Shown: in pieces, positions 9,940-28,244 of the stretch
Position numbering within the stretch: position 1 is the first letter of the stretch
Layout of the letters: the number at the start of each line of letters is the position of its first letter
Assembly (NCBI GenBank): GCA_965277275.1
Contig: CBDICG010000002.1
Location: 2,322,850 to 2,386,849 of the forward strand
DNA from: Paracoccaceae bacterium
GTDB taxonomy: Bacteria; Pseudomonadota; Alphaproteobacteria; Rhodobacterales; Rhodobacteraceae
Direction: 5' to 3'
DNA length: 64,000 nucleotides
Notes under the pieces: model-generated
Told to the model about the DNA's origin: nothing
The model's input: the letters and a program-made list of their open reading frames with translations, nothing else
Database searches by the model: none
Made by a program: the position numbers and the translations under genes

Positions 9940-10305
9940 ATGAAGGGTCTTCTGGGATTATTCTCCGCCATCGGTCTGATTGCGACAACGGCGCTCGCCA
10001 ACGAGGACAAGGGCGCCTGGGTCGACGCGACGCGTGACGGGAACATGGTGCGCCTCGAAGTGTTCGCGGCGCTGCAGGCGGGGGAAGGCGGACGCTACGA
10101 ACTGACCGCCACCAAGCAGGGCACGAGCGGTCGGTCGATGAACCGCCAGGCCGGGAATGTCCCTGTATCCGATGGCTCAGCCCGTGGTCCGATCAGCACA
10201 TCGAGTTTCTCGGTGGAGCGCGGCGCGACGCTGGAGGTCGAGCTCCGGGTCGTAAGTGCGTCCGGCGAGGTCTATGAGGATGTCGTCTCGATCGTCGGGG
10301 AGTAG
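9940..10305 (+). CDS. csgH: Curli chaperone CsgH-like protein
   Basis: Signal peptide; RYELTATKQGTSGRSMNRQAG matches the CsgH Y-x-L-x3-K-x-G-x-SG-x-S-x3-Q-x-G pattern; operon context. Confidence 0.8.
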   Translation: MKGLLGLFSAIGLIATTALANEDKGAWVDATRDGNMVRLEVFAALQAGEGGRYELTATKQGTSGRSMNRQAGNVPVSDGSARGPISTSSFSVERGATLEVELRVVSASGEVYEDVVSIVGE

Positions 10306-11197
10306 GCTCGGCTCCACGCGGGCGGCGTCTCGTCCGAGGGCTGCGCCTGGATTGCAGCCCGGCCCACAGCTCTCTCGCCCAATCTGTGCGACGGATACGC
10401 GATTGGCGTGCGGATGCAGCGGGGGTCAGCCCGATCCCGAACGCGGTTTCCCGATTGGCAACAAGGCGCGCCCGAGCGCGGGAAAATCCCTTTGCGCTGC
10501 GCGATGGTCCTAAGGGCATAGGGAGCAAAGAGGCGACCCGTTGCATACTGGCCTACTCTCCGCCCCGACGCGCCTCGCGTGCCCGCTTTTTGCCGGATCA
10601 GGCGCATCTGCCGCGACTGATCCGGGCGACAGCAAGTGACACGGCAACGCAGTGGCGGACACCCCGTGCGCCCGCTTTCGCCAGCCTCCCCCGTTCACGG
10701 GCGAGCGTGGTCCATCGTGGGCTTGCCCACCACCAACGTGCCTTCGTAGCCTTCGCAAGGGGCGCAACGAACTACGCGCGCATCCCTCTCTGACCGCCTC
10801 CGACCGTCGCTTCCGCCCATCGCGCTGTGTCGCAGATCATCGAGCCTGCGCTCGGAATGCACCGCACGAAAGCCGCGCGCCGCGTGCCAAAACGCGGGGC
10901 GCGCGCATCTCTGCGCATCTGCTGGCGGATCGATGCCGACGCCTCGCGGCCGCAAGCGCTTGTATGTTGGGGCCTTCATGACCTTTGCCCATTGCTGCCA
11001 CGTTTTGTCCATATCCGGATGCTCATGATCCTGCCTACAACGCTTGGGGAGGCGACTATGCTGCACAGAAGGCTGCCACTTCTGGTATCTCTGAACTTGC
11101 AGGCAAGGCCCGTCTTTCGGCACCGCGGATGCGATGCCGGAGCCGTAAGAATTTCGGCCGTCAGCGCGATTGCGACCAACAGCATGAGGCGACCGAT

Positions 11198-13654
11198 ATG
11201 AGTCTATTTCAGGCCGCACCACACCGGAGCATTTCCGACGCCGTGGCAGATCTCTGGCAATCACCGCCGGACGCCCTGAGCAGCTTCACGGCTGCTGGGG
11301 CCCTTATGAGAATCCCGGACGATCTGGCCGTCGTGTCGTCCGCCAACCTCGCAGACATGGATCTTGTCGCCCATCCGGGGGGATGCGGCTGCTTTGGCTG
11401 CGGCGTGCGCGATGACGACGAGGGCGCCGGAACCGGGCCTGTCCTGGTGTCTTCGAGCCTGCAGGCGGCCTCGCTTCAGGATCTGGCCGACTACTTGCGC
11501 GAGGGCTACTGGTCCGACTCCAACTGGTACTCTTTCAACTGGAACATGACCGGGTCGGGCAGCAACTCCAATTCCGGTGAACTCCTCTATAATCTGAGCG
11601 GGTACGACTTTTCCGATGAGATCTACGATCGGGAAGACACGAACGGGATCTCGAATGCGCGCAAGGAACTTGTGCGCGACAGTTTCGATCTGTTTGAAGA
11701 GGTCTTGGGGATCAACTTCACCGAGACGACGTCGCAGGACCCGAGCGACGTGGATTTCTTCTTCTCGGATAACGACGGTGGAGCCTACGCCTCGACGTGG
11801 ATCAACACGTCGTCGGGTACAAGCTCTATCAGTTTCGTCAACGTCGCCGCGGACTGGAGCGGAAGCACGTCGACCTTCGACGACTACACGCTGCAAACCA
11901 TCCTGCACGAGATCGGTCATGCGCTCGGCCTGGGACACCAGGGGAACTACAACGGCTCGGCCGGGTATCCGGGCAACGCAAAGTTTGCCAACGATTCCTG
12001 GCAGGCGTCCATGATGTCGTATTTCTCACAGAGCGAGAACTCGACGATCCCCGCCGACCGCGAGTTCCTCCAGACGCCGATGTCGGTGGACTGGCTGGCC
12101 CTCGAAGAGATGTACGGCGATCAGAGCTTCGGTGGCACGACCTTTGGGCTTCAGAATGCCTTCGAGGGCGATACGGTCTACGGGTTCAACACGAATATCA
12201 GCGCGTCTGTCAGCGAGATCTGGGCCCTCTTCGCCGACTACGCGGATCGGACCGCCTCGACGATTGTCGACGGCGGCGGAAGGGATACGCTGGATTTCAG
12301 CGGCTATTCCGAGAACCAGCGCATCGACCTGCGGCCATCGTCGACCAACTCGACGACGCCCGTCTCGTCCGATGTCGGCGGCCGGGTCGGGAACCTGACG
12401 ATTGCCGTGGGAACGGTCATCGAAAACGCTGTAACGGGCTCGGGTGACGACACGATCACCGGCAACGACGCGGATAACCTGATCGTTGCGAATGGCGGCG
12501 ACGACACCATCGCGGGTGGTCTGGGCGATGACACGATCGAAGGTGGCGGCGGGACGGACACGCTTGTGCTCGGCGCAGACCTCGAGTCGACGTCCATCTC
12601 GCAGCAATCTGCCGACAGGTGGATCTTCTCGCTGGAAGGCGGGACGCGGTACGACGCAAGCTCCGTGGAGTTCGTACAGTTTACCGACACGACGGTTGCT
12701 GTCGACGATCTCGAGGAAACCGGGGATGTCGAGGAGCCGGAGCCCGTTCTCCCGGGCGATGCCCTCACCGACTTCACGGATGACGGCACCAGCGACGTGC
12801 TTTGGCGCGACGGCGCGTCCGGGCGCACCGGCTACTGGGAAATGGATGGCGGAGCGCGCACGTGGAACGAAGTCGGCACCGTCACCACGGCATGGGACAT
12901 CGTGGGTTCGGGCAACTTCTCGGGCAGCAGCGCAGATGACGTTCTTTGGCGCAACACTGAGACGGGCCGGACCGGCTACTGGGAGATGGACGATGGCGAC
13001 TTCACCTTTGTCCAGCTCTCGACTGTCGGCCTGAATTGGGATGTCTTCGGTGTCGGCGACTTCGACGGCAACGAACAGGATGACATCCTGTGGAGAGATA
13101 CCGATTCCGGTCGGGTCGGATACTACCGGATGGAGAACGGCAATTTCACCTGGACCCCGCTCTCGACCGTCTCCGAGACCTGGCAGATTGTCGGCACCGG
13201 TGACTTCGACGGAAACGGTCAGGATGACATTCTTTGGCGCGACACCGCCACGGGTCGGACCGGATACTACGAGATGGACGGCAGCGAGTTCTCCTGGAAC
13301 GAGCTTGCGACTGTCGATCTCGACTGGAAGGTCGTTGGCACCGGCGATTTCAATGGCGATGGCGAGGCCGATATCCTCTGGCGCAACACCGAATCCGGGC
13401 GCAATGGCTATTGGGAAATGACGGATGGCGACTTCGCGTGGAGAGAGATTTCCGGCGCGAGCGGCAACTGGGAAGTCGCGGCAACGGGCGACTACTCCGC
13501 CGACGGGAGCGACGACATCCTGTGGCGCGACACGAACTCCGGCCGGACCGGTTACTGGGACGTCGACGGATCGTCCACATCATGGACAGAGTTGGGCGTT
13601 GTCGGCCTGAACTGGGATGTCGAGGGAACCGCACCGGATCCGTGGTGGGTCTAG
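11198..13654 (+). CDS. Serralysin-like M10 zinc metalloprotease with RTX repeats and six C-terminal FG-GAP/VCBS-like repeats
   Basis: HEIGHALGLGH, Met-turn SMMSYF, GDTVYGFN, GGxGxD repeats, six 48-aa D-F-x-G-x-G-x-D-D-I-L-W-R repeats. Start uncertain (11198 has GAGG). Confidence 0.9.
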   Translation: MSLFQAAPHRSISDAVADLWQSPPDALSSFTAAGALMRIPDDLAVVSSANLADMDLVAHPGGCGCFGCGVRDDDEGAGTGPVLVSSSLQAASLQDLADYLREGYWSDSNWYSFNWNMTGSGSNSNSGELLYNLSGYDFSDEIYDREDTNGISNARKELVRDSFDLFEEVLGINFTETTSQDPSDVDFFFSDNDGGAYASTWINTSSGTSSISFVNVAADWSGSTSTFDDYTLQTILHEIGHALGLGHQGNYNGSAGYPGNAKFANDSWQASMMSYFSQSENSTIPADREFLQTPMSVDWLALEEMYGDQSFGGTTFGLQNAFEGDTVYGFNTNISASVSEIWALFADYADRTASTIVDGGGRDTLDFSGYSENQRIDLRPSSTNSTTPVSSDVGGRVGNLTIAVGTVIENAVTGSGDDTITGNDADNLIVANGGDDTIAGGLGDDTIEGGGGTDTLVLGADLESTSISQQSADRWIFSLEGGTRYDASSVEFVQFTDTTVAVDDLEETGDVEEPEPVLPGDALTDFTDDGTSDVLWRDGASGRTGYWEMDGGARTWNEVGTVTTAWDIVGSGNFSGSSADDVLWRNTETGRTGYWEMDDGDFTFVQLSTVGLNWDVFGVGDFDGNEQDDILWRDTDSGRVGYYRMENGNFTWTPLSTVSETWQIVGTGDFDGNGQDDILWRDTATGRTGYYEMDGSEFSWNELATVDLDWKVVGTGDFNGDGEADILWRNTESGRNGYWEMTDGDFAWREISGASGNWEVAATGDYSADGSDDILWRDTNSGRTGYWDVDGSSTSWTELGVVGLNWDVEGTAPDPWWV

Positions 13655-13847: not shown

Positions 13848-13994
13848 CCCTGCGCCCTGCGCCCTGCGCCCTGCGCCCTGCGCCCTGCGCCCTGCGCCCT
13901 GCGCCCTGCGCCCTGCGCCCTGCGCCCTGCGCCCTGCGCCCTGCGCCCTGCGCCCTGCGCCCTGCGCCCTGCGCCCTGCGCCCTGCGCCCTGCG
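13848..13994. repeat. Heptamer tandem array (CCCTGCG)x21, perfect
   Basis: Counted directly: 147 bp, between convergent genes. Confidence 0.97.
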
Positions 13995-14771: not shown

Positions 14772-15599
14772 TTACGCGGCTGTCGACCAGGCACCGGCCC
14801 GGGCGGCGGCGGCGGCGAAGGCAGCGAAATCGCGGGGGGGGCGGCCAAGCGCGCGCTGAACGCCATCGCTCACCCGTTCGTTGCGGCCGTCGAGCGTCTC
14901 GCGTGCGATCGCGGTGAAGACGTCGGCGACGAAGCCGCCGCCCGAGGCCGCAACATTGGCGTGAAACTCCTCGAACGAGATCGGCACATGGCGGATCGGC
15001 CGGCCTGTTGCCCGGCTGAGTTCTCCGGCCATGTCGGCCCAGCTCATCAGCCGCGGCCCCGTCACTTCGTAGGTTTCACCCGCATGGCCTTCCTCGGTTA
15101 GGGCAGCGACAACGACGTCCGCAATGTCGTCGATGTCGATGATCGGATCGGTGATGGCGCCCCCCGGCATGGGAAGCACCCCCGCAAGGATCGGATCGCG
15201 CAGATACCCCTCGGAGAAGTTCTGTGCGAACCATGTGGCGCGCACGATCGTCACCTGCGGTCCGGCTGCCTTCACGGCCTCCTCGCCCAGTTTGGCGTGG
15301 TGTTCTCCCCGGCCCGAGAGCAGGACGAGCCGCTCGACGCCCGCCGCCTTGGCCTGGGCTGCAAGCGCTCCGACCTTTTCGACGCCGCCCGGGAAGGCGA
15401 GGTCGGGAAAGTAGGTCACGTAGGCGGCGCGCACGCCCTCCAGTGCAGGCCCCCAGGTCTCTTGGGCCTCCCAGTCGAAGGGGATGGCCGATTTGCGCGA
15501 TCCGCGGCGGACAGTGTGGCCAAGCGTGTCGAGCCTTGCGGCGACGCGGCGCCCGGTCTTGCCGGTGGCGCCGATAACGAGAATGGGTGCGGTAGACAT
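14772..15599 (-). CDS. NmrA-like NAD(P)H-binding atypical SDR
   Basis: ILVIGATGKTGRRV, VLLSGRGE, WFAQNFSEG, GRPPRDF. Confidence 0.92.
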   Translation of the reverse strand: MSTAPILVIGATGKTGRRVAARLDTLGHTVRRGSRKSAIPFDWEAQETWGPALEGVRAAYVTYFPDLAFPGGVEKVGALAAQAKAAGVERLVLLSGRGEHHAKLGEEAVKAAGPQVTIVRATWFAQNFSEGYLRDPILAGVLPMPGGAITDPIIDIDDIADVVVAALTEEGHAGETYEVTGPRLMSWADMAGELSRATGRPIRHVPISFEEFHANVAASGGGFVADVFTAIARETLDGRNERVSDGVQRALGRPPRDFAAFAAAAARAGAWSTAA

Positions 15600-15704
15600 G
15601 GTGTGTTCCCCTATGTGTCAGTTGATGACCAAGGGGTAAGACACGAAGCATCCGCGCGTATTGATCGCGCCTGCCAGCGTTTTGACCTTCGGCGCCAATT
15701 GGCG

Positions 15705-16709
15705 TCAGGGTGCGCTTTGCTTCTTTCGGTAGCTTGCCGGGGTCTCTCCCGTCCAACGCTTGAACGCGCGCGTAAAGGCGCTCTGCTCGGAGAAGCCTGT
15801 GAGAAAGGCGATTTCGGCCAGGGAATACTGGTTTTCCCGGAGCATCCCGAGCGCGAGTTCGCGCCGTGTTTCGGCAGTCAGGGTCTGGAAGGTCACGCCG
15901 TGTTCGGTCAGGCGGCGGTGGAAAGACCGTGCGCTCAGCCCCAGCCCGCGCGCGATGTCCGCCATCTTCGGCAGGCCCTCGCTGAGCGCACGGGCGATGG
16001 CATCCCGCGCCGTGCGCACAAGTGCAGCGTCTTCCCGGATCTCGGAGAGTTCCCTGTCGAGATGCGCGATCAGGAACCGCGTGATGCCCTCGTCACCGAG
16101 GCGGTTGGGCTCTTCCAGCGACGCGCGCGACAGCAGCATCGCGTCCTGATCGGCGCCAAACCGAACCGGGCAGCCGAAATAGGCCTCGTGTTGGTGAACG
16201 TCTTTTGGGCCGGGATGTTTGAAGCACACCTCGAGGGGAGCGAATGACCGGTGCGTCACCTGCCGGGCCAAGGACACACCGCTGGCCAGATCCGCCTCGA
16301 TCGACAGGCGCATGCCCAGCCGGCGCGCGCCTTCCCTGTGCTCGACGAACCAGGCCCCCTGTTCGGTCTCCTGCACCTCGTAGCGGACGATACTTGTCCA
16401 GAGGCGCGCGTATCGCGCAACGCGCGAGAAGGATCCCAAAAGGTTCGGCGCCGCCTTCCACGCGAGCCCCAGCGCGCCGTATTCGTCGGGCCGCATGGAG
16501 TCACCGACCGTCAGCGGCAAGGCGGTGATGTCCATCTGCTCTGCCATGAGCTCGAGCATGCCGTAGTAGGCATCCTCCGAGAGCATGATCTTGGGATCCC
16601 AGGGCCCGTCCGGATCCAGCGCGACGGAGTCCAGCACCTGCCGTGCGTCGATCGCATCGCCTGCCGTCGCGACGACCTTGCGTGCGAAGAGCGAGGTGAC
16701 TTCACCCAT
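15705..16709 (-). CDS. AraC family transcriptional regulator
   Basis: YGALGLAWKAAPNL ligand domain; C-terminal LGLSARSFHRRL and IAFLTGFSEQSAFTRAFKRWTG. Confidence 0.95.
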   Translation of the reverse strand: MGEVTSLFARKVVATAGDAIDARQVLDSVALDPDGPWDPKIMLSEDAYYGMLELMAEQMDITALPLTVGDSMRPDEYGALGLAWKAAPNLLGSFSRVARYARLWTSIVRYEVQETEQGAWFVEHREGARRLGMRLSIEADLASGVSLARQVTHRSFAPLEVCFKHPGPKDVHQHEAYFGCPVRFGADQDAMLLSRASLEEPNRLGDEGITRFLIAHLDRELSEIREDAALVRTARDAIARALSEGLPKMADIARGLGLSARSFHRRLTEHGVTFQTLTAETRRELALGMLRENQYSLAEIAFLTGFSEQSAFTRAFKRWTGETPASYRKKQSAP

Positions 16710-17104
16710 ATTGACGGACCCAGGCGGACACCGCGGCGCATCCGGTACAGGCGGTGGGCACGCGATCCCGACCCGACCGAGGGCGCGCTGCGCCGTGCGC
16801 GATCAGACGAAGGCCAGCGCCTCGTGCTTTACCTGAGAGCCCGCGCCCCGCCGAAGGGTCTTGTTGTGTTCTGGTCATTGCGAGCCCCTGTTTGCCACAA
16901 AAGGCAAGGGGCCCCGCTGCACAGGCCCCGTCGCCGACAATGCCACTCCGTGGGCCCCCACGGAAAGGGATCTTTGGCGCGCGTGAGCTGGTCGGAAAAA
17001 GATTTGCCGGTATCGCGTCCAAACATGTCATAGTGACGTTGGGTAATGGCGGTTTGCTTCGTGCGCGTGGTTCTTGGTTCAGGGCACCATCAGCGGGGGC
17101 AAGA

Positions 17105-17806
17105 ATGGCATCAAACGACACGATCGGTTCTGGCGGTTTTGGCGGTTCTGGCGGTTCTGGCGGTTCTGGCGGTTCTGGCGGTTCCGGCAGCTTCGAGGCC
17201 GAGATGCGGGCCGCGCTGTTTGACGCGCGGCGGTCCATGCGCACGCGCCGTTTCACCCAGGACAGCCCGCTGTTGCCGGATATCTGGCTGGCGTTCGCCG
17301 CCGCTCCGAGTGCTCCTCTCGACATGCTCATCAATCCAACGCGCGGCAAGCGCACAGGCATGGTCGCGCAGGAAATGCGCGGTCTCGTCGAGGCATTGCG
17401 CGATACCGGGCGGTCCGACGAGGCCACCGTGCGGGGAAGCTGGGGCACCGCCGAGCCGCGTATCGTCCACATGCCGGGAATGATCGTCGCGCGGCTCTAT
17501 TTCAACGAGCTGATGCGCATCGTCCTGCCCAGTACGAATTGGTGGGACACACAGATGGGCCTGCTCGATGGCGGCCCGTTCAGCCGTGCCGAGCGTGATG
17601 AGAACGGCTCCGAAGCGGAGCGCCACCACCTCTTCAACGCCGCCCAGATCAACAAGCTGATCGATGTCTACGACGCAGTCGTGGCCGAGGATCAGCCGCT
17701 CGAGACGATCAAGTCCCTCCAGCCGCCGCCCTACGAGTTTCTCAAGCTCATCGAGGTCGCTGCGCTGGTCGTCGGGCGGCATCTCGAAGGGCAGATCGAG
17801 GCATGA
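17105..17806 (+). CDS. N-terminal part of an S8 peptidase gene, ends at an in-frame TGA
   Basis: ATG after GGGGG RBS; GS-rich start, then RFTQDSPLLPDIWLAF...LYFNELMRIVLPSTNWW. Same frame as 17840..19216. Confidence 0.75.
   Translation: MASNDTIGSGGFGGSGGSGGSGGSGGSGSFEAEMRAALFDARRSMRTRRFTQDSPLLPDIWLAFAAAPSAPLDMLINPTRGKRTGMVAQEMRGLVEALRDTGRSDEATVRGSWGTAEPRIVHMPGMIVARLYFNELMRIVLPSTNWWDTQMGLLDGGPFSRAERDENGSEAERHHLFNAAQINKLIDVYDAVVAEDQPLETIKSLQPPPYEFLKLIEVAALVVGRHLEGQIEA
17126..17188 (+). repeat. 9-bp in-frame tandem repeat (GGTTCTGGC)x7, two variant units, encoding a Gly/Ser tract
   Basis: Counted directly. Confidence 0.92.
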
Positions 17807-19216
17807 GACGAAGACGCCGCATCCGCTATTCTGCACCCGGTGCGCCTCTTCGCGTCGCTCTACGAGAAGTGGCCCGCCGACCCGACGCAACCCCGCTCGC
17901 GCGCCGTCATCTGGAACGTCACGCGCAACAGAAAGGCCGATCCGGCGATCGAGAAGTCGGTCAAGGCGATGAAAGCCGATGCGGGCCGAATGCTCTTCAG
18001 CATCGATTGCAGCGCGCTGCGCTGTGCCGTGATCGACAGCGGGATCGACACGCTGCACCCCGCCTTCCAAAACCGCGAGCCCAGGTCCGGCGAGCCTCGG
18101 TCGCGCGTCATTGGAACCTACGATTTCGGCGATCTGCGCTATGCCCTCGACCCGCGCTTTCTGGAAAAGCTGCGCGACCTCGTGCGCACCGGAACGCAGC
18201 CGCCGAGCGAGACCTCCCCGAAACGCGAGGATCGCGCCCTTGCGCGCACCCATCGCCGCTTTTCGGGCTACGATGCGCCGGGGACGGCGCAGATCCGCGA
18301 GGACCGTCTCGCGGACTACCTCCAGCTTGTGATTGACCGCGCCAATGCCGGGCTCGAGATCGACTGGGCCGTGGTCGAACCGCTCATCCACGAGCCCCTG
18401 ACGGACACCGTCGCTCCGCCTCCGCCGCGCCTCCCCCACGGGACGCAGGTCGCCGGGGTGCTGGCCGCCGATCACCCGCAAGCGGATGGCTCGCGGCTGG
18501 CGGGCGTTTGCCCGGATCTGCGCCTCTACGATCTCCGCGTCGTATCCGAAACGGAGGACAACGCGACAACCGTCGCGGCACATGATTTCGAGGTCATCGC
18601 GGCGCTGAAGTTTCTCGGGCACCTGAACGGGCGGGCCGACGAGCCCGCTGTGCACGCGGCCAACGTATCGGTCTCGATCCCGCATGACGTGTCCCGCTTT
18701 GCCTGCGGGCGCACACCCATCTGCGAGGAATGCGAGCGCCTCGTATCCTCCGGCGTCGCGGTCGTCGCTGCGGCGGGCAACTCCGGCTACAATGACGACG
18801 AGGATGTGGATGCCCGGTTCTACCGCTCCGGTTCGATCACGGATCCGGGGAATGCCGAGCTGGTGCTGACCGTTGGCTCGACGCATCGCGAGATGCCCCA
18901 CCAGTATGGCGTCAGTTACTTTTCGTCTCGCGGACCGACCGGCGATGGCCGGCGCAAGCCGGATCTCGTCGCTCCGGGGGAAAAGTTGAGCGTTCCGGCG
19001 CCGGGCGGGCGCCTCGATATCGTGGACGGAACGAGCTTCGCCGCGCCGCATGTCACGGGGGCCGCGCTCCTGATGATGGCCCGGCATACCGAGCTGATCG
19101 GGCGCCCCCAGCGCATCAAGGAAGTCCTGTGCAGCTCCGCCACGGATCTCGGCCGGGAGCCCTATTCGCAAGGCGCCGGCATGCTCGATGTGCTGCGGGC
19201 GCTGCAATCCATTTGA
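17807..19216 (+). CDS. S8 subtilisin-like serine protease catalytic domain (continuation after TGA; possible GTG start 17840)
   Basis: Triad intact: AVIDSGID, PHGTQVAG, AAGNSG, GTSFAAPHVTG. No signal peptide. Confidence 0.9.
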   Translation, partial: DEDAASAILHPVRLFASLYEKWPADPTQPRSRAVIWNVTRNRKADPAIEKSVKAMKADAGRMLFSIDCSALRCAVIDSGIDTLHPAFQNREPRSGEPRSRVIGTYDFGDLRYALDPRFLEKLRDLVRTGTQPPSETSPKREDRALARTHRRFSGYDAPGTAQIREDRLADYLQLVIDRANAGLEIDWAVVEPLIHEPLTDTVAPPPPRLPHGTQVAGVLAADHPQADGSRLAGVCPDLRLYDLRVVSETEDNATTVAAHDFEVIAALKFLGHLNGRADEPAVHAANVSVSIPHDVSRFACGRTPICEECERLVSSGVAVVAAAGNSGYNDDEDVDARFYRSGSITDPGNAELVLTVGSTHREMPHQYGVSYFSSRGPTGDGRRKPDLVAPGEKLSVPAPGGRLDIVDGTSFAAPHVTGAALLMMARHTELIGRPQRIKEVLCSSATDLGREPYSQGAGMLDVLRALQSI

Positions 19217-19231
19217 GAGGAGAATTGAACA

Positions 19232-22200
19232 ATGGCCAAGTTTACAATGGTCGCCGACGGGTTCGTGCCCAAGAAGGTGAAGGTCGCGCAGGGGCTGAAG
19301 ACAGGCTATGCGCCGAAGTCAAAGCGCACCCGGTCCGGCCTGCTCTCGGTGATCGGCGACGACGAGCGCAGCCGGTTCACCGACACGCATCTTGCCCCCT
19401 GGCGCATGATCTGCTCGCTGCGCATTCACGCGGCCTCCGGCGCGGTCATGATCGGAACGGGCTGGCTGATCGGCCCGAGGACGGTGCTGACGGCTGGCCA
19501 CTGCATCGCGACCCGCGAGCACGGTGCCCATGCCCGGATCGAGGTGATGGCCGGGCGCAACGGAGACGTCTTTCCGTTCGATACGAGGGTCGTCGACCAT
19601 GGCCGCATGGAGGTGCATCCACGCTGGGCCAACGGCTTCGATCCGGATCGCGATGTCGGCGTGCTGCATCTTCCCGATGAGCTTGGGCGCGAGACGGGAT
19701 GGTTCGCCACGGCCACCCCGACAGACGGGGAGCTCGCAGGACTCTTGGTGAACGTCGCGGGCTACCCGGGCTCGATCGAGGTCGGGGGCAGGCGCACGCG
19801 CGTCAACGGGCGCGAGCTGTGGTGGCACGCGGACGCCATCGCGCGGTCCGACGCCGAGCGCATCTTCTACGCCACCGATACGAGCGGCGGGCAGAGCGGC
19901 GGCCCGGTCTGGACAGCGACCGATCAGGGCGGCGCTCCGATCGGGATTGCCGTTCATGCCTATGGCGCGACGCAGCTGCGTCTGCCGGGCGGGCTCGCCC
20001 CCGCCATGGCCAACTCCGCGCCCCGGATCGACGCGGATCTCGCGGACCGCATCACCGACTGGATCGCGCAGAGCCATGCCATGGCCGAGATGGCAGCTCC
20101 ACCCGCGCCTCCGCACGGCACTTTCGGGTCGGGCATAGCCTCGGGCGCCGGGGCAGGAAACGGCTCCGGTGGCAGGCAAGGCGGAGGAGGCGCCGGTGGA
20201 GGGAGCGGCGGCGGTGGCCATCCGCCAACGGGCGGCGGTGGCAACTCGGACGGCGGAGGCGGTCGCAGTGGCGGCGGCAGCGGCGGCGGCGATGGCGGCG
20301 GCGGCCCGATCGACATCACCGAGCTGATGCGCCGCGTCTCGGATCCCGACGTCCCCTGGTCCGAGGTGGCGCCCTATCTCGCAGAAGACGAGACCTTTTC
20401 GCAGCCCTTCTCCCCGCGCTATCGCCTGTCGCCCGGTCCGGGCCAGCCGGTGCCGGAATCGGCGGCCGCACTCGATTGGCTCAATGCCGCCATTCGCGCC
20501 CGGCGACGGCGCCAGTTCAACCGGGACACGCGGCGGCGCCCCGGGGACCGCCGGATTGTCACGGACGGCGATTCCTGGTTCCTCCACCCGCTCATCACCG
20601 AAACATGGGGCGTCCTGCGCCCCCGCTATCTCGCGCTGAGCCTCGATGGTGCGGGCGACCTGGTCGAGGATATCGCGCGGGAGCGGCACGCAATCGCCGC
20701 AGCCCGCGAGATCGGAGCGCTGGCCGTCGTCCTCAGTGGCGGCGGGAACGATGTTCTGGCCGGGGGCGCCCTCGAAGAGGTTCTGACCGTTGGCGATGGG
20801 CAGGACCCGCGGACCTACATTGATCTCGCCGCCTACCGCGCCAAGGTCGACGCGGTTGTCGACGATCTGGGCGGCTATGCCCGTGCGCTGCTGACCGGCA
20901 ACGTCGGTCTGCACGTCTTCATGCACGGCTATGACCGGCCCCGCCCGATGCCCGGAGGCAAATGGCTGGAACGCCCGATGCGCGACCGGGTGCCCCCCGC
21001 GCTTCAGGCGGGCGTTGTCGGCCACATGATCGACGTTTTCAACGACGCGGTGGCAGAGCTTGCCGCCGATCTTGGCAGCCGCGCGCACTACGTCAACATG
21101 CGCGGTGCCGCGCCGCATCCCTGGTACGATGAGATCCACCCGAGCGACGCTGGCTTCGTCGAAGTCGGTAACCGGATGGATGCCGCAATCCGTGCCGCCC
21201 TTGGCGAAGCGGCCCCGGAGTTCGCAGGCAGCGCGCTGCCGCCCCTCGCCCCGCACCTGATGCGCAACGTCGAGGACGCGGACGAGGCCGTCGCCCGCCG
21301 GCGCTATATCGCCCGGATGACGGAGGCGGGCCATCCCGTGCTTTCGGTGCGTCCACTGGGCATGCAGGGGCCGCAGCCCGAGAGCGTCGCGCGCGTGCCG
21401 GGCAGGGAGCGCGTCGTCCTGCCCGCTGGTACCATGGCGGCGACAGAGGGGCTGGACTTCGGCGACGATGTCGCTCTCGAAGTCGTTCTGGGCGCGCCGG
21501 ATTTCCTTGCCGCCCGGTTCCTGCGCGATGGCGCGGCGCGGGCCTCTGCCGTCTGCCGCGTGCGCCTGCCCGGCGGTTTCGGCTCCGGCTCGTTGCTAAG
21601 GGGCGACGTGATCCTGACCAACCACCACGTCCTGCCCGATGCAGCCACGGCGGCGCAGGCGATTGCGGAGTTCGACTTCGAGGAAGGCGGCACGCCGATC
21701 CCGGTGCGCCTCGAACCCGAGAGGCTCTTTATCGCAAGCGAGGGGCACGACTTCGCGCTGGTCGCCTGTGACGCGTCGGCGCTCGCCGGGGTAACCCCGA
21801 TCGATCTTCCGCTCGAGCCATCGGGGATCGTCGAGGGCGCGCCGGTCAACATCATCCAGCACCCCGCCGGACGCCAGAAAGAGGTCGCGCTGCGCAACAA
21901 CGACGTGCTCTCTGTCCTCTCCGGCACCATGCGCTATCGCACGGATACGGAGGGTGGCTCCTCCGGCTCGCCGGTGTTCGACGATTCCTGGCGGCTCGTG
22001 GCGCTGCACCGTGCCGGTCTGGCGGGCGCCTTCAACCAGGCGGTGCGGATCGAGGCGATTGCCGGGTTCCTCGAGGCGCGCCTCGCCAACGGCGACATCG
22101 CGAACGCCACGCTCCTGCGCCAGGTCCTGCAGGGAACGGCGCCGGAGCTTGGGTTCTTCGGGCGGGCCGGGGCTTTCGACACGCTCACGCCCGAAGTCGA

Positions 22201-23146
22201 GCTCCCGAGTTTCACGGGAGACGGCGTTTTCGCGGATGTCGGGTTCTGGAACATCCAGGATTTCTTTGGCGACCCCTCGGAGGCGCGCATACGCCGCGTG
22301 GCCGAGCTGCTGACCGACATGAACATGGATGGGATGGGCCTGATGGAAGTGTCCGAGGCGCCTGTTCGGGCTCTGGCGGCGCGGATGAACGCGATGGGCG
22401 GCAATGTCGGCGTGCTGGCGTTCGACACCGCCGGGACGCGGGACCACGCGTTGCTCTTTGACCGCGACACCACCACCGTGCGCCTGATGCGGGAGGTGCT
22501 GGATCGCCATGCCGGTTTGATCGGAGAGCGCATCCAGGGCCGGCTTGTCTTCCCGCGTGAACCGCTCATCGCGGAGGTGCATGTCGGAGACGCCCGCTTC
22601 GTGATGATCGTGGTGCATCTGAAATCCAAGGCCGGCAGCAACAAGCCCTTGTCAGAACGCCGCCGCCGCCGCGCCGCCGAGATCCTGACGATGATCGTCG
22701 ACGATATCCGCACGGATACGGGCCTGCCCGTGGTCATTGGCGGCGATTTCAACGAGGCGCTCGATACCGATGTGCTGTCGAGCCTCACGGATGCGCCCGG
22801 CCACATGACCCTCACCGCGGATGACCACGAGGATGGGGCCATCACGCTGCTCAACCCACGGTTCGCCTCGCTGATCGACCACGTGATCGTGGCCGGTGAC
22901 CTGCAGCTTGGCGACATCGAGGATGACGACCTCGCCATCGTGCGGTTCGACCGCTCGATCTCGGATTTCGTCGACACGCTCTCGGATCATACACCGCTGG
23001 TGATGCGCGTCGTGATGCGGGACGAGGCGGTGCCCCGCCAAGTGCCGGGCGATGGCGCAGGCGGATCCGCTGGCGGCGGCGGCGAAGCGCCCGACGCGAT
23101 CGACATTCCGCAGGGCGCGAGCGCAGTCCGGGTCAGCTTCGACTAG
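19232..23146 (+). CDS. Multidomain protein: V8-like trypsin / Gly-rich linker / SGNH hydrolase / trypsin / EEP nuclease-phosphatase
   Basis: LTAGHC..DVGVL..TSGGQSGGP; GDSWF..GGGND..DEIHP; TNHHV..DFAL..TEGGSSGSP; WNIQ..MEV..VHLKS..GGDFNE..IDH..LSDH. Strong GAGAGGAG RBS. Confidence 0.88.
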   Translation: MAKFTMVADGFVPKKVKVAQGLKTGYAPKSKRTRSGLLSVIGDDERSRFTDTHLAPWRMICSLRIHAASGAVMIGTGWLIGPRTVLTAGHCIATREHGAHARIEVMAGRNGDVFPFDTRVVDHGRMEVHPRWANGFDPDRDVGVLHLPDELGRETGWFATATPTDGELAGLLVNVAGYPGSIEVGGRRTRVNGRELWWHADAIARSDAERIFYATDTSGGQSGGPVWTATDQGGAPIGIAVHAYGATQLRLPGGLAPAMANSAPRIDADLADRITDWIAQSHAMAEMAAPPAPPHGTFGSGIASGAGAGNGSGGRQGGGGAGGGSGGGGHPPTGGGGNSDGGGGRSGGGSGGGDGGGGPIDITELMRRVSDPDVPWSEVAPYLAEDETFSQPFSPRYRLSPGPGQPVPESAAALDWLNAAIRARRRRQFNRDTRRRPGDRRIVTDGDSWFLHPLITETWGVLRPRYLALSLDGAGDLVEDIARERHAIAAAREIGALAVVLSGGGNDVLAGGALEEVLTVGDGQDPRTYIDLAAYRAKVDAVVDDLGGYARALLTGNVGLHVFMHGYDRPRPMPGGKWLERPMRDRVPPALQAGVVGHMIDVFNDAVAELAADLGSRAHYVNMRGAAPHPWYDEIHPSDAGFVEVGNRMDAAIRAALGEAAPEFAGSALPPLAPHLMRNVEDADEAVARRRYIARMTEAGHPVLSVRPLGMQGPQPESVARVPGRERVVLPAGTMAATEGLDFGDDVALEVVLGAPDFLAARFLRDGAARASAVCRVRLPGGFGSGSLLRGDVILTNHHVLPDAATAAQAIAEFDFEEGGTPIPVRLEPERLFIASEGHDFALVACDASALAGVTPIDLPLEPSGIVEGAPVNIIQHPAGRQKEVALRNNDVLSVLSGTMRYRTDTEGGSSGSPVFDDSWRLVALHRAGLAGAFNQAVRIEAIAGFLEARLANGDIANATLLRQVLQGTAPELGFFGRAGAFDTLTPEVELPSFTGDGVFADVGFWNIQDFFGDPSEARIRRVAELLTDMNMDGMGLMEVSEAPVRALAARMNAMGGNVGVLAFDTAGTRDHALLFDRDTTTVRLMREVLDRHAGLIGERIQGRLVFPREPLIAEVHVGDARFVMIVVHLKSKAGSNKPLSERRRRRAAEILTMIVDDIRTDTGLPVVIGGDFNEALDTDVLSSLTDAPGHMTLTADDHEDGAITLLNPRFASLIDHVIVAGDLQLGDIEDDDLAIVRFDRSISDFVDTLSDHTPLVMRVVMRDEAVPRQVPGDGAGGSAGGGGEAPDAIDIPQGASAVRVSFD

Positions 23147-23240
23147 CGATGAGGGGCCGCGCGCGGGCGCGGCTCATGCCGCCCACAGGGCATCCCACCC
23201 GCCGAGTGTCGGGGGAATGCGCCACACAGGGAGAGATGAC

Positions 23241-24680
23241 ATGGCCGGAACCAGAAAAGACATCGCCACGCTCGGCGGGGATTGGCCGGATGAGCTTTTA
23301 TGGTACGCGCGCGCCGTCGCAGAGCTGCGCACGCGGCCTCTGACAGACCGCACAAGCTGGGCCTATCTTGCCGCGCTGCATGGGTTGAACGGGGAGGGCT
23401 GGATCGATCAGGGGATCCTTCCCCAGAACACCCCGGCCCCGCCTCCCAACGAAATGCAGCTGATGTTCAACCAGTGCCAGCATGCCGGGTGGTTCTTCCT
23501 GCCGTGGCATCGCGGCTATCTTGCGGCGTTCGAGGCGATCCTCGGCGGCTGGATCGCCCAGCAGGGCGGGCCGCAGGATTGGGCCTTGCCCTACTGGAAC
23601 TATCTCTCCGATGCCCCGGGCGCGCGGGATCTTCCTCCCGCATTCCGCGATGCGACCCTGCCCGACGGAACGCCGAACGCGCTGGCCCGGGCCGTCCGTG
23701 GGCCAGCCACCACGCTTGGCCCGCTGCCCTGGACGGATTCCCGGGATATCACCTTGGCATCCCAGACCGCCGAGGCCTTTTACACATCGGATCCGGGGGG
23801 GCTCGGGTATGGCGGTCCGATCAGCGGCTTTGCCTCGCAGGGGAACGCCTTTGGCGCGGTGGAGAATGATCCCCACAACCTTGTCCACGTGATGATCGGC
23901 GGCGGGACAGCGCAGGGTCAGCAGGCAGGCTGGATGCTCGATCCCGACTTTGCCGCCCTCGATCCGGTGTTCTGGGTGCATCACTGCAATATCGACAGGC
24001 TCTGGGCGGCCTGGATGACCGACCCGACACATGTGCAGGAAGTCTCTGCCGCCTGGGGCAATGGCCCGTTTCCCCGCCGCTTTGCTATGCCCTCCGCCGA
24101 TGGCTCCGGGATCGAGACATTCGCGCCCGAAGAAACGTTGCCCAACGGGGCGCTGGCGCCCGATTATGACGATCTCACAGCGGGCACGGGCATCCTGCCC
24201 GCCCCCGAGATCGCTGCCGCCGCCCCGCCTGCCCGCCCTCCTGCGCCGCTGCTGATCGGTGCAAACGATGCGCCGCTCACCGTGGACGCCGAAGCCCGGA
24301 CAACCCAGCTCGCCCTGCGGCGCGCGCCCGTCCCCGAGCTTGCGTCCGCCGTGCCCGCGCGCGTGTTCCTCAGTGTCGAAGGGGTACGCGGCCAAGCCCC
24401 GAGCGGCGTGCTGCGCGTCTCGGTCTCCGCGCCGGGCGGCGAGGAAGCGTTTCGCACCGCCATCGCCTTCTTCGGCCTCGGCAAGGCCTCCCGGACAGAC
24501 GGCAGCCATGCGGGCAACGGTCTTGCCGCGACGGTCGATGTCTCGGCCGAGCTGGGCGCCCTCCTGGCCGAGGGCGGCGCGGCGCTCGATGCGCTCGACC
24601 TGGCCCTGGTGAGGCCAACCGATGGAGAGCCGCCGATCACGGTGGATCGTATCAGCCTGCACACCCAGCCGGGCGCCTGA
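23241..24680 (+). CDS. Tyrosinase (type-3 copper protein) with C-terminal extension domain
   Basis: CuA: ALHG..CQH..FFLPWHR. CuB: PHNLVH..DPVFWVHHCNIDRLW. No signal peptide. Confidence 0.92.
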   Translation: MAGTRKDIATLGGDWPDELLWYARAVAELRTRPLTDRTSWAYLAALHGLNGEGWIDQGILPQNTPAPPPNEMQLMFNQCQHAGWFFLPWHRGYLAAFEAILGGWIAQQGGPQDWALPYWNYLSDAPGARDLPPAFRDATLPDGTPNALARAVRGPATTLGPLPWTDSRDITLASQTAEAFYTSDPGGLGYGGPISGFASQGNAFGAVENDPHNLVHVMIGGGTAQGQQAGWMLDPDFAALDPVFWVHHCNIDRLWAAWMTDPTHVQEVSAAWGNGPFPRRFAMPSADGSGIETFAPEETLPNGALAPDYDDLTAGTGILPAPEIAAAAPPARPPAPLLIGANDAPLTVDAEARTTQLALRRAPVPELASAVPARVFLSVEGVRGQAPSGVLRVSVSAPGGEEAFRTAIAFFGLGKASRTDGSHAGNGLAATVDVSAELGALLAEGGAALDALDLALVRPTDGEPPITVDRISLHTQPGA

Positions 24681-24681
24681 G

Positions 24682-25455
24682 ATGCGCAGCGCGCGCGCCG
24701 CGTGGGCCCAGCTGCGGACCGGTCCGCTGCCCGTGCTGCTGATCCTCAGCCTCCTTGGCTTCATCGCGCTCGGGGTCATTCCCGGCGCCGCGGCCGCCGC
24801 CGTATGCGGGAGCCTGCGCCTCGCCGATCTGTGGTCCCTCGGTGGGCCGGCGCTCACGGGGGTGAGCCCTGCATCCGTAGCGCTCGACTGGGGGGTCATG
24901 GTCGTCGCGATGATGAGCGTCGTGATCACGCCGCAGGTGGCCCATGTCCTGCGCCTGAGCCCTCCGCGTGCCCGGGGTGCCGCGGCGGCCTCCGTCTATC
25001 TCGGCTTCCTGTCCGTCTGGCTTCTGGCGGGGGCGCTCCTGCTGCCGCTCGGGATGCTCCATGTCCAGACAGCGCCCGGTGGCCTTGCGCCGCTTCTGGC
25101 GGTCGGGTTCGCGCTTGTCTGGAGCGCCTCTCCTCCGGCACAGGCCGCGCGCAACCGGTGTCACCGGCTTGGCCGGGTCGGCGGGTTCGGGCCACGCGCG
25201 AGGTGGGACAACGCGCGGATCGGCATCCGCACCGGCCTCTGGTGCGTTGCCGCATGCTGGCCGGTCATGCTCATCCCGCTCACGATCGGCGGGGCAGCGC
25301 ATGTGCCCGCGATGGCCATTGCCGCGCTCTATCTCCTGCTGGAGCGGATCGGGCCCCCGGCCCCTGTCCGCTGGAGCCTTCCCCCCGTGATCTCGCTCGT
25401 CCGGCAGGCCCTCCTGCCCGTTGCAAGAGTCCGCCGCACCAGCCGCGCCATCTGA
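24682..25455 (+). CDS. DUF2182-like putative metal-binding integral membrane protein
   Basis: DWGVMVVAMM, ARNRCH, GLWCVAACWPVM, HVPAMA..LLER; several TM segments; 1 bp after the tyrosinase. Confidence 0.8.
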   Translation: MRSARAAWAQLRTGPLPVLLILSLLGFIALGVIPGAAAAAVCGSLRLADLWSLGGPALTGVSPASVALDWGVMVVAMMSVVITPQVAHVLRLSPPRARGAAAASVYLGFLSVWLLAGALLLPLGMLHVQTAPGGLAPLLAVGFALVWSASPPAQAARNRCHRLGRVGGFGPRARWDNARIGIRTGLWCVAACWPVMLIPLTIGGAAHVPAMAIAALYLLLERIGPPAPVRWSLPPVISLVRQALLPVARVRRTSRAI

Positions 25456-25589
25456 AAAGCCGCAATGCCGTGCTCCCACGGCGCGCGCATTGCCCAACCC
25501 CGGCCACCGCACAGCCCGCTTCATCTTCTGTTCCCACCGCCTCACCGCGCCTGGATCTGCGGGGGGCAGTCCGCGAATGTCTTCCTGCG

Positions 25590-25604
25590 TTAACCGAGGC
25601 TTAC
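25590..25604 (+). promoter_or_regulatory. CtrA-like site with one mismatch, TTAA-N7-TTAC
   Basis: TTAA ccgaggc TTAC about 50 bp upstream of the Hint/RTX gene. Confidence 0.4.
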
Positions 25605-25655
25605 GAGGTCGCGCGTAAGGTCCATGCCACCGCCCCCGATCCGGAGCCGACTGGC

Positions 25656-27581
25656 ATGCCGCTCTACCTGTTTTCCGGCTATGCGCCGAGCGATTTTCAG
25701 ACCATCCAAGGCTCGACGCCGGGCAGCCAAGCGTCAAAAATGTTGCGCGTACCCGACGACACGACGCACGCCTTCGAGGTCAACGATGACGACGGGATGC
25801 TATCGGGATCCGGCGGGTCGGTCAGGACCGCGGGCGATACAAACCAGAAAGCCAGTGTCTACCAGGGCAATGCCGCCGCCGCCTCAGGCACAGTGTATGT
25901 ACAAAGTGTTATGTCCTTCGAAGATCAGGCTGGCACGCCCCACAAGGCCTACCTTGTGGGGATCGAGGAGAGCGGCGAACGCTTTTATGTCTTCGAAGCG
26001 CCGCCACCGGCGGGTGGAACGGATCTCACGGTCATCTCGTCGTCCCCACCTCCGAGCGAGGGCGTCGCCTATTCCGCCCTTGCCGGCAACGACATCCGCG
26101 ATTCGGACGCGCGGCCCGCCACGGATGCCTCGGGGAACGAGTACATTGCATCCGGCTCCGGGGATGACGCGCTCACCACGCGCGGCGGAAACGACACCGT
26201 CGACGCAGGGGAAGGGAACGATACCGTCACCGCCGGAGACGGCGACGACAGCATCGAAGGCGGGGCAGGCAACGATTCGCTCGACGGCGGCGCCGGGAAC
26301 GACACGCTCTCGGGGGGAGCAGGCAATGACACGCTCCATGGCGACGCCGGCAACGACCAGATCGACGGCGGCGCGGGCAGCGACATCATCTATGGCGGCG
26401 AGGGCAACGACACCCTCGCTGGCAACGAGGGCACCGATTGTCTGCGCGGGGATGCCGGCAACGACGTCATCTTCGGCGGCGCCGGGGACGACGCCGCGAC
26501 CGGAGGGGCAGGCAACGATACGCTCTACGGCAACGACGGGGCGGATGTTCTCTATGGCGGCGACGGCGACGACTTCCTGATCGGGGACGGTGGCAACGGC
26601 GAAACCGGGAACGATACGCTGATCGGTGAAGCCGGAGATGACACGCTGTTCGGTCAGGGCGGCGATGACGTCATGACCGGTGGAAGCGGCAACGACTTCT
26701 TCCTTGTCAGCGCGGGCAACGACACGATCACGGATTTCAACGGGGGCAATACCGGATCGATCGATGACCGCGACCTGATGAACAACGACTTCGTCAACTT
26801 GTCGACTTACTACGACAACCTCAGCCAGGTGCGCGCCGACCACGCCGATGACGGCGTCCTGAACCAGTCAAACACGTCTGACAGCCACGGAAACGCGGTC
26901 GATTACTCGGATAACACCCAGTTCGGGGCCTCTTCCCTGACAATGCAGGGCGCAACTTCGCAAAGCTTTACCTACGACACCACGGGGCTGGAGTGCTTTG
27001 CGTCGGACACCCTTATCGACACGCCGAAAGGTGCGGTGCGGGCAGGGGCGCTCCGTCCAGGGGATCTCGTGACGACGCTCGATCATGGGCCTCAGCCGCT
27101 CCTGTGGGTCGGGGTGCGCCGGCTGGAGGGGCATCACCTCAGGGGCAACGTCAGGCGCCGTCCTGTCCTTGTCCGGCAAGGGGTGCTGGGCGCCCGCCGC
27201 GATCTCTTCGTGTCGCGCCAGCACGGGCTGGTTGTCGGCGATAACCTCTCCCGCGCGATCCACCTCTGCCGGACGATGAAAGGGGTGCGTATCGCCCATG
27301 GCAAGCGGCACGTCACCTACGTGCATCTCCTGTTCGAGCGCCATCAGATCGTCATATCCGAGGGCGTGCCGAGCGAGAGCTTCTATCCCGGGCCGAGCGC
27401 GCTCCGGACAATGGCCCCCGAGGCGCGCCGCGCGGTGCTGCGGCTCTTGCCGGGTCTGGATCGCCCCGAGGCCACGACCGGTTTCGCGGTGGTGCGCGCG
27501 GTCTACGGCCCCACGGCGCGGCCCTTTGCGCCGCCCCGGCGGGCTGCCGCCGAGCGGCCCGCCCTCGACATCGCCTCCTAG
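25656..27581 (+). CDS. RTX Ca-binding repeat protein with C-terminal Hint (bacterial intein-like) domain
   Basis: Many GGAGNDxL nonapeptides; ECFASDTLIDTPKG..GDLVTTLDHG..YVHLLFERHQIVISEGVPSESFYPG. ATG after GGAG. Confidence 0.92.
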   Translation: MPLYLFSGYAPSDFQTIQGSTPGSQASKMLRVPDDTTHAFEVNDDDGMLSGSGGSVRTAGDTNQKASVYQGNAAAASGTVYVQSVMSFEDQAGTPHKAYLVGIEESGERFYVFEAPPPAGGTDLTVISSSPPPSEGVAYSALAGNDIRDSDARPATDASGNEYIASGSGDDALTTRGGNDTVDAGEGNDTVTAGDGDDSIEGGAGNDSLDGGAGNDTLSGGAGNDTLHGDAGNDQIDGGAGSDIIYGGEGNDTLAGNEGTDCLRGDAGNDVIFGGAGDDAATGGAGNDTLYGNDGADVLYGGDGDDFLIGDGGNGETGNDTLIGEAGDDTLFGQGGDDVMTGGSGNDFFLVSAGNDTITDFNGGNTGSIDDRDLMNNDFVNLSTYYDNLSQVRADHADDGVLNQSNTSDSHGNAVDYSDNTQFGASSLTMQGATSQSFTYDTTGLECFASDTLIDTPKGAVRAGALRPGDLVTTLDHGPQPLLWVGVRRLEGHHLRGNVRRRPVLVRQGVLGARRDLFVSRQHGLVVGDNLSRAIHLCRTMKGVRIAHGKRHVTYVHLLFERHQIVISEGVPSESFYPGPSALRTMAPEARRAVLRLLPGLDRPEATTGFAVVRAVYGPTARPFAPPRRAAAERPALDIAS

Positions 27582-28244
27582 GGCTCCCCGCCACCTTTCC
27601 CCGCCGGATCCACCCATCTCCGCTCTTGGTCGGTCTCAGCCAGACCCGCGCAACTGGGCGCGATCGCGCATGGTGCTCATACGCCGGAGTGAAGGCACCG
27701 TGGCCCGGAAATCCCTGTAGGACCATGCCCGTGCCATCCTCCCATCATGGCGGAGCGTAGCGCTCCGCCGAATGCGCAAGAGTAGGCCCCGGCGGCGCGC
27801 TTGAGCGGCGCACGAGATCCATGGGCGCACGTGCTGGATGCGGGTGGTTCGCGTTGTGCGTCCGCGATGCGGTGCGGGGTCGTGGCACAGAGCGCGCGGC
27901 AGGGCCCTGCTCGGGCAAGGCCGCAAGCGGGGCAGACCCCTTATGCCCGCAGGCGGTCGCAGATCGAAACGCGGGGCAGCCTTGCCGGAATGCCGCGCCC
28001 ACCCCGTCGCGACCATTGACGCAGCAAGTGCCGGTGATACCACCCCGAAGGCGTGCAAGGGCATGCTGTCCTTCGGGGACGCCCTGTTCGGGCGCGTGCG
28101 CGACCGGACCACGATCTGCCAGGGGAACGAAACGGTGCTCTTGAACGCGATCCATCCCAGCCAGCGCAAGCATCCCCTGCGGGACGCTTGCACCCGTACG
28201 CGCCCGGTTTTCCGGCGCGCGCCCCTGACCGGGGAAGACCCGGC

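Follow-up and report, generated by a model that had tools for sequence, protein, structure and literature searches.

A single in-frame TGA interrupts an S8 protease gene whose homologs are continuous

The DNA analysed here (the window) is a 64,000-nucleotide stretch of a Paracoccaceae bacterium contig. Two adjacent open reading frames (ORFs) in it, separated by an in-frame TGA, are on comparison with their homologs almost certainly the remains of one ancestrally continuous gene, encoding a conserved N-terminal domain (N-domain) and an S8 subtilase domain. The interruption probably reflects a young nonsense mutation by which the protease of a protease-effector module has been inactivated or strongly weakened.

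Reading frame and homologs

Read directly, positions 17801–17842 are GCA TGA GAC GAA GAC GCC GCA TCC GCT ATT CTG CAC CCG GTG. The TGA in this stretch lies between a 233-codon ORF that begins at ATG 17105 and the S8 subtilase ORF that begins at GTG 17840 (Table 1). ATG 17105, the TGA and GTG 17840 are in one frame (17840 − 17105 = 735 = 245 × 3), and translation of 17105–19216 yields 233 codons, the stop and 469 codons, or 703 codons in total plus the terminal TGA. Across the junction the translation runs ...HLEGQIEA, the stop, and then DEDAASAILHPVRLF.... A sequence-only reading of this DNA had described one in-frame TGA, a shared frame and a 703-codon fusion, all of which were borne out by the sequence and its translation. 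The mechanical ORF list gives the two pieces as 16754..17806 and 17840..19216. The true start of the 5′ ORF may be ATG 17105, or ATG 17204 instead; the latter has GAGG 5 nt upstream and would give a fusion of 670 codons, and a 200-aa protein beginning there is present in the protein library (P0058). The tandem repeat near the 5′ end encodes (GSG)n if the start is ATG 17105 and belongs to the 5′ leader if it is ATG 17204. This repeat is missing from all aligned homologs and is predicted to be disordered, and Logan contigs break there.

Table 1. Features of the interrupted gene and its partner (window coordinates)
Feature	Position	Strand	Evidence or remark
5′ half, N-terminal domain of the family	17105..17803	+	RFTQDSPLLPDIWLAF ... 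WW ... LKLIEVAAL; alternative start ATG 17204
9-bp tandem repeat (CGGTTCTGG x 7.1)	17125..17188	+	TRF
Nonsense codon, in-frame TGA	17804..17806	+	Sequence, plus contigs of X1, X2, X3, X5 and X6
Eleven in-frame sense codons (DEDAASAILHP) from the stop to the first possible restart codon	17807..17839	+	Homologous coding sequence without a start
3′ half from GTG: helix and beta-hairpin, then S8 catalytic domain; terminal TGA	17840..19216	+	
Partner gene, 1304 aa: two trypsin-like domains, GDSL-like segment, C-terminal EEP	19232..23146	+	Pfam

When the fused translation, its stop written as X, was searched against proteins, about 50 homologs of 580–790 aa were found, covering 93–96% of the query. 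The best of them (P0002, 720 aa) had 64% identity to the fused query (E = 1e-281, 96% query coverage), and the sole 100% match was the 458-aa 3′ product (P0001). In the alignment the 5′ ORF corresponds to a conserved N-terminal domain (RFTQDSPILPDVWLAF, WW, LKLIRVAG) that occupies residues 1–230 of the continuous homologs, and the 3′ ORF to a helix (LVxAFxxLF), a hairpin (NR..S..AMKADAARRLF) and the S8 catalytic domain. Because both halves align to single continuous proteins, their in-frame arrangement is not a matter of chance.

The same continuity was seen at the level of genomic loci. A scan of one genome per species returned at least 589 stretches encoding relatives, distributed over many phyla, and 80 loci were kept. 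The 5′ half was found by tblastn in 76 of these 80, and the N-domain and the S8 domain shared one ORF in 75 of the 76 loci with a detectable N-domain; of the remaining kept loci, four had an N-domain that was undetected or cut off by a contig end, and one (L070) was frameshifted. Metagenomes supplied 55 further loci, 35 of them testable, of which 32 were continuous, bringing the continuous loci from genomes and metagenomes to 107 of 111 testable. Not one of the approximately 111 testable homologous loci was split at the position of the window's stop. Sporadic lesions were present at other sites: a TAG inside the N-domain (L100), the frameshift in L070, which is a metagenome-assembled genome (MAG), and a frameshift in an insert of the S8 domain in L123 and L135, which are identical in sequence. 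The database comparison of the fused translation, proposed by the sequence-only reading, therefore returned continuous homologs and not a consistent pair of separate genes. This result, together with the lack of a restart or recoding signal (see below), supports the earlier view of a continuous gene cut by one nonsense codon. The members of this family carry the N-domain and the S8 domain in a single polypeptide encoded by one uninterrupted ORF, which the TGA at 17804 breaks in the window; by its alignment to them, the window gene is a family member by descent that has been disrupted. No relative closer than 64–68% amino acid identity was found by the protein search, the genome scan, or metagenome scans with a degenerate DNA pattern or seeded with protein.

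The stop codon and its surroundings

Six public runs hold the locus, and Logan contigs were examined for five of them, X1 and X5 from study P1 and X2, X3 and X6 from study P2, together representing four samples at word depths from 2.7 to ~280. All five runs, assembled separately, agreed with the window over 17155–19400 with no differences and had the same TGA. Contigs of X2 and X6 matched the window over 15000–27600, with no differing letters around the stop. Thus, a stop that is premature relative to full-length homologs is present in the DNA itself, as expected of a nonsense pseudogene, and the same TGA allele was found across the four samples. Draft assemblies often contain single-base errors, and the evidence here consists of assembled contigs, not raw reads, in which a minority sense-codon variant could be hidden. 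However, an artefact masking a sense codon in the true genome would have to recur in five independent assemblies, from four samples and two studies, that reproduce 17155–19400 without differences, at a site outside any homopolymer or repeat. We regard such an artefact as hardly credible and the TGA as very likely real. The base-call or assembly error that had been offered as an alternative is refuted as far as contigs show, with zero differences among five runs and a sense codon in none of their contigs. The depth of X6 was uneven and looked RNA-like at first; chimeric contigs and loose ends starting with GATC suggest a Hi-C-type DNA library.

In the predicted structure the stop sits in a variable surface loop. 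Its equivalent is residue 231 of P0002, between helices 207–230 and 242–248 of the AF2 model; the full-length AlphaFold model of P0002 is compact and two-domain (pLDDT 80, pTM 0.87). The N-domain modelled alone by AF2 (pLDDT 81, pTM 0.76) is predicted to fold independently. A break at such a place might be compatible with function if the N-domain and the protease half were made separately, by termination and reinitiation at GTG 17840, 34 nt past the stop, and then reassembled non-covalently. The in-frame GTG close to the stop, the domain structure just described and the retention of all family signatures in both halves are consistent with such a split, and restart after nonsense codons without a strong Shine-Dalgarno (SD) sequence is known from classical lacI genetics. 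Against it, GTG 17840 has no ribosome-binding site, as had been noted from the sequence: the 22 nt upstream (cgcatccgctattctgcacccg) contain no purine-rich SD motif. Moreover, this codon corresponds to an internal residue, since HPV(R/T)L of the window aligns with HPVTL of the closest homolog, in which the Val is encoded by GTC. With no SD sequence at the GTG and no recurring split at this loop among relatives, the locus does not resemble a naturally split two-gene variant, and an exhaustive phmmer search with the N-domain found no clear class of stand-alone N-domain proteins, the short matches being scattered in length like contig-end fragments. We consider a functional split unlikely. A coupled restart at ATG 17803, which overlaps the stop (ATGA), was rejected: the frame that this codon opens is not that of S8, and its 177-aa ORF (17803–18336) is a shadow ORF of the kind typical at a genomic GC of 67%.

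UGA is the leakiest stop codon of bacteria. Leaky or regulated read-through, in which a few ribosomes insert, for example, Trp and the full-length activator is made at a very low dose, would suit a variable column where any residue is tolerated and a frame that stays open for 469 codons past the stop. However, no stimulatory structure was detected downstream: shuffled versions of the 86 nt from 17795 fold equally well (z = 0.03), and a search of 16500–19500 against Rfam gave no match at E up to 1. The TGA-G context of the stop at 17804 is also that of real gene ends in the window, the S8 gene and the tyrosinase gene both terminating in TGA-G, and TGA is the terminator of 7 of the 14 long ORFs there. 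No homolog has a stop at this position, and therefore it is not a conserved device. Read-through as the function of this stop is, in our estimate, very unlikely. Selenocysteine insertion or another programmed recoding event would likewise take advantage of the TGA, a Sec codon, and of the open frame that follows it. The downstream sequence offers neither a hairpin nor an Rfam match for such recoding, no tRNA gene, tRNA-Sec included, was found in the window, and homologs have neither Cys nor Sec at this non-conserved loop position. The probability of this explanation is negligible.

Between the two halves, no promoter-like or terminator-like site was found on the + strand. Three oligo-dT RNA runs of the labelled organism contributed 0 reads for transcription of the locus. 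The sequence-only reading had named read-through and a separately expressed regulatory domain as alternatives; both keep that standing, lacking positive evidence as well as a precedent in the family. Taken as one proposal, the idea that the stop is a working arrangement, giving either two polypeptides or full-length protein only by rare UGA read-through and so a low, safe dose of protease, appears quite unlikely. If true, the bacterium, which lives with a eukaryotic host, would have a naturally attenuated cascade whose protease activates a giant trypsin-GDSL-trypsin-EEP effector.

The residue replaced by the stop was also considered. The stop column belongs to a gappy, variable linker. Among the 19 aligned homologs it is filled by A, D, S, K or R or left as a gap; W and C do not occur. 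Opposite the stop the closest relative has GCG (Ala), within a variable loop that is unalignable, which makes it uninformative on the ancestral codon. The proposed origin from TGG (Trp) found no support here, the aligned column never being Trp and the closest relative having GCG. CGA, GGA, TCA, TGC and TGG are each one step from TGA, and all are possible ancestral codons.

State of the two halves

Apart from the stop, the gene is well preserved. Conservation was measured by a leave-one-out comparison with intact homologs, using columns at least 85% conserved. Of these, the window gene kept 17 of 18 in its N half and 145 of 153 in its C half, matching the intact homologs in rate; of the columns invariant among the other members it kept 11 of 11 and 103 of 104, respectively. 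GC3 was 0.79 and 0.82 in the two halves vs 0.83 in the neighbouring gene. The 3′ half is a Peptidase S8 domain by profile (PF00082, 116.3 bits vs a cut-off of 21.8, residues 74–458) and matches the PADLOC 'subtilase' model PDLC03014 (3e-36). The catalytic triad and oxyanion residues are all present, namely D311 (DSGID), H445 (HGT), N559 (AAGNSG) and S644 (GTSFAAPH), and all four columns are invariant in alignment A1.

No lesion other than the TGA is seen in the gene, which means either that the mutation is young or that selection still acts on both pieces; because no relative is closer than 64–68% identity, computation does not separate the two. The nonsense event is most likely recent, judged from these sequences, because nothing else has decayed: the conserved columns are kept and the partner gene is full length. 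Against a young inactivating mutation it can be said that the preservation of conserved residues in both halves would be expected just as well if two working polypeptides were under selection. The identity of the allele in four samples, which shows that this clone retains it stably, weighs on the same side.

The favored explanation, a young nonsense mutation, would operate as follows. An ancestral protein of ~700 aa would have consisted of the N-terminal domain, a linker and the S8 subtilase domain, and a single point mutation would have created the TGA in a poorly conserved surface-loop codon. Ribosomes would then stop after the N-domain, and the protease half would have no ribosome-binding site of its own, leaving the protease absent or present in traces made by UGA leakage or by inefficient restart at GTG 17840. 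If the normal role of the protease is to cleave and activate the latent effector encoded downstream, by analogy with protease-MBL nuclease pairs already characterised, the mutation would switch the cassette off without damage to the gene for the harmless proenzyme. We infer that the gene has lost its function, that the protease activates the effector and that the cassette serves in defence. The earlier suggestion that the stop silences a system is reasonable: in the conserved two-gene protease-effector cassette the S8 gene comes first, and the gene after it is intact.

The N-terminal domain, the partner gene and known systems

The N-domain belongs to no Pfam or NCBIfam family, and a Foldseek search of PDB folds gave no significant match (best E = 0.9). 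A match to DUF6426 (17.7 bits, below the cut-off) fell on the Gly/Ser repeat and is probably spurious. The best PDB matches of the full-length model were unprocessed pro-subtilases (3afg, 3whi and 6mw4, Csp proteins among them). The model resembles the pro-forms of pro-subtilisin E, Pro-Tk-SP and Csp proteases in the packing of its N-terminal part against the catalytic domain (pTM 0.87). In those subtilases the N-terminal propeptide serves as an intramolecular chaperone or inhibitor. Unlike them, the window protein has an N-domain (233 aa) with no detectable I9 fold and far larger than an I9 propeptide, and neither a signal peptide nor a setting for secretion is evident. The N-domain may be a sensor or an autoinhibitory domain, by analogy with sensor-protease fusions described in the papers cited below.

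The partner gene begins 15 nt past the stop codon of the S8 gene. It is full length and 52–55% identical to the partners of relatives, with invariant catalytic motifs, and the GDSL-like segment is found in the partner orthologues as well (order: trypsin, GDSL-like, trypsin, EEP). The same 1255–1309-aa partner follows an intact S8 gene of 707–727 aa in the nearest relatives, L083 (P0002), L081 (P0004), L082 (P0005) and L001 (a Limibaculum MAG). The partner is presumed to be a latent effector or a second-tier zymogen. Genes for a tyrosinase (tyrosinase-DUF7868) and an RTX-Hint protein lie further downstream in the window; neither was a conserved neighbour of the S8 gene in any of the 80 loci.

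Most members of the family have a different partner. An MBL-fold gene (~400 aa) was found downstream of the S8 gene in 71 of the 80 loci, on the same strand at a median distance of 14 nt, and its products match PADLOC LmuA (PDLC03854), Avs1a and RTasMBL, and NCBIfam Avs1a. MBL genes adjoining S8 subtilisin-like proteases have been described as clade 3 of the protease-associated MBL effectors, and trypsin-associated MBLs as zymogens cleaved by their own protease (bioRxiv 10.1101/2025.11.14.688446). In a Science paper, MBL nucleases of Hachiman and AVAST were reported to be proenzymes activated by the partner protease (PMC12799240). The protease-activates-effector logic has thus been demonstrated for trypsin-MBL and caspase-nuclease pairs (bioRxiv 10.1101/2025.11.14.688446, PMC12799240), and the clade 3 S8-MBL pairs are related to the trypsin-MBL nuclease pairs of Hachiman, AVAST, Lamassu and DRT (PMC12799240). 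The S8 protein of the window is in the same family as the proteases of the clade 3 pairs (bioRxiv 10.1101/2025.11.14.688446), and the layout is shared, with the protease gene first and the partner immediately downstream on the same strand. In contrast to the S8-MBL module, the neighbour in the window is a trypsin-trypsin-EEP protein with no MBL match, so that the S8 gene does not adjoin an MBL gene, and the protease gene is broken by a stop. In a small alphaproteobacterial clade the usual MBL effector has been exchanged for a multi-enzyme protein of ~1300 aa, which suggests a two-tier protease cascade. The role of the module is probably anti-phage, by analogy with the systems above.

The window gene resembles ordinary nonsense pseudogenes, including inactivated genes for defence or toxin activators, in having one premature stop in an otherwise intact conserved gene and no restart or recoding signal; no feature so far distinguishes it from them. 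The stop itself is an ordinary lesion and the S8-MBL pairing has already been described; the module variant and the N-domain are of more interest. The S8 family with this N-domain, which has no recognised fold, is very widespread in species-representative genomes, as the number of stretches encoding relatives indicates. If the mutation inactivates the protease, the locus would be one more predicted defence-type cassette disarmed by a single mutation in the activator, the cheapest off-switch, with the latent effector left intact. For annotation, the two ORFs (called as 200 or 233 aa and 458 aa) should be merged into a single S8 gene marked as interrupted, not listed as a hypothetical protein plus a short subtilase.

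A weak resemblance to a further system was also observed. Unlike the IetAS anti-plasmid/phage system, the window has no IetA ATPase partner and the N-terminal architecture of its protease differs; the S8 domain gave a weak PADLOC match to IetS (1.7e-07), far below its score with the generic 'subtilase' model.

The N-terminal domain and partners of the S8 family

The S8 family is widespread, with 425 representative clusters at E values up to 0.001. As a protein, its N-terminal domain (233 aa, 17105-17803) has no model in Pfam or NCBIfam, and no fold match was obtained in the PDB, yet its AF2 model is confident. In a small alphaproteobacterial clade of the family, the usual MBL-fold partner is replaced by a protein of ~1300 aa with trypsin, GDSL-like, trypsin and EEP domains, in that order. 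This architecture in the place of the MBL-fold protein suggests a two-tier protease cascade, with lipase and nuclease/phosphatase as the predicted end activities. The N-terminal trypsin domain of the large partner gave weak hits to Avs1b and LmuA, in their protease portions. Among the 80 S8-MBL genome loci compared, 21 carried a same-strand patatin-like phospholipase gene ~150 nt upstream, a candidate for a third component or for an alternative effector.

Features of the window and of homologous S8-family loci (L numbers)
Feature	Locus	Coordinates	Remark
~1300-aa partner	window	19232-23146	
~1300-aa partner	L001	8150-11917	
~1300-aa partner	L081	12216-16145	
~1300-aa partner	L082	12146-15979	
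~1300-aa partner	L083	3623-3778	
Patatin-like phospholipase gene	L004	8711-9889	
Patatin-like phospholipase gene	L032	8542-9702	
TAG	L100	618-620	within N-domain
Frameshift	L123/L135	about 6100-6204	same sequence
Frameshift	L070	about 10236-10246	
Metalloprotease-RTX-FG-GAP protein (M10/serralysin)	window	10985-13654	upstream of cassette
7-bp repeat	window	13848-13994	
9-bp repeat	window	17125-17188	
Tyrosinase with C-terminal DUF7868	window	23052-24680	first gene after cassette
RTX-repeat protein with Hint_2 domain	window	24702-27581	after tyrosinase

Disruptions in homologs and the 9-bp repeat

Single disruptions were also present in other family members (L100, L123/L135 and L070), each at a different place; these lesions may mark genuine pseudogenes, or else errors of sequencing in metagenome assemblies. 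In the window, the 9-bp unit CGGTTCTGG is repeated 7.1 times in tandem. The repeat encodes a (GSG)n tract, predicted to be disordered, at the N-terminus of the S8 N-domain ORF, or lies in the 5' leader of that ORF if translation starts at ATG 17204. None of the aligned homologs has this repeat. A change in its copy number would keep the frame, and contigs from short reads end at it.

Source of the sequence and flanking genes

Among runs X1-X10 (whole window), all those containing the locus share one organism label, under which oligo-dT RNA-seq also exists and, judging from GATC junctions in X6, what looks like a Hi-C library. In runs of ~0.9 Gb, the locus was covered to a depth of only 3-30x. 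Rather than being the labelled organism, the bacterium is probably a cobiont picked up in a project to sequence a eukaryote.

None of the tyrosinase, RTX-Hint_2 and metalloprotease-RTX-FG-GAP genes flanking the cassette is a conserved neighbor of the S8 family in the 80 loci. The listed tyrosinase ORF shares 95 nt with the gene before it, so translation probably starts further downstream. About 190 nt past the stop of the metalloprotease gene, apparently in intergenic DNA, the 7-bp unit CCCTGCG is repeated in tandem 21 times without a mismatch (100% matches); a minus-strand ORF across it reads as Arg-rich nonsense.
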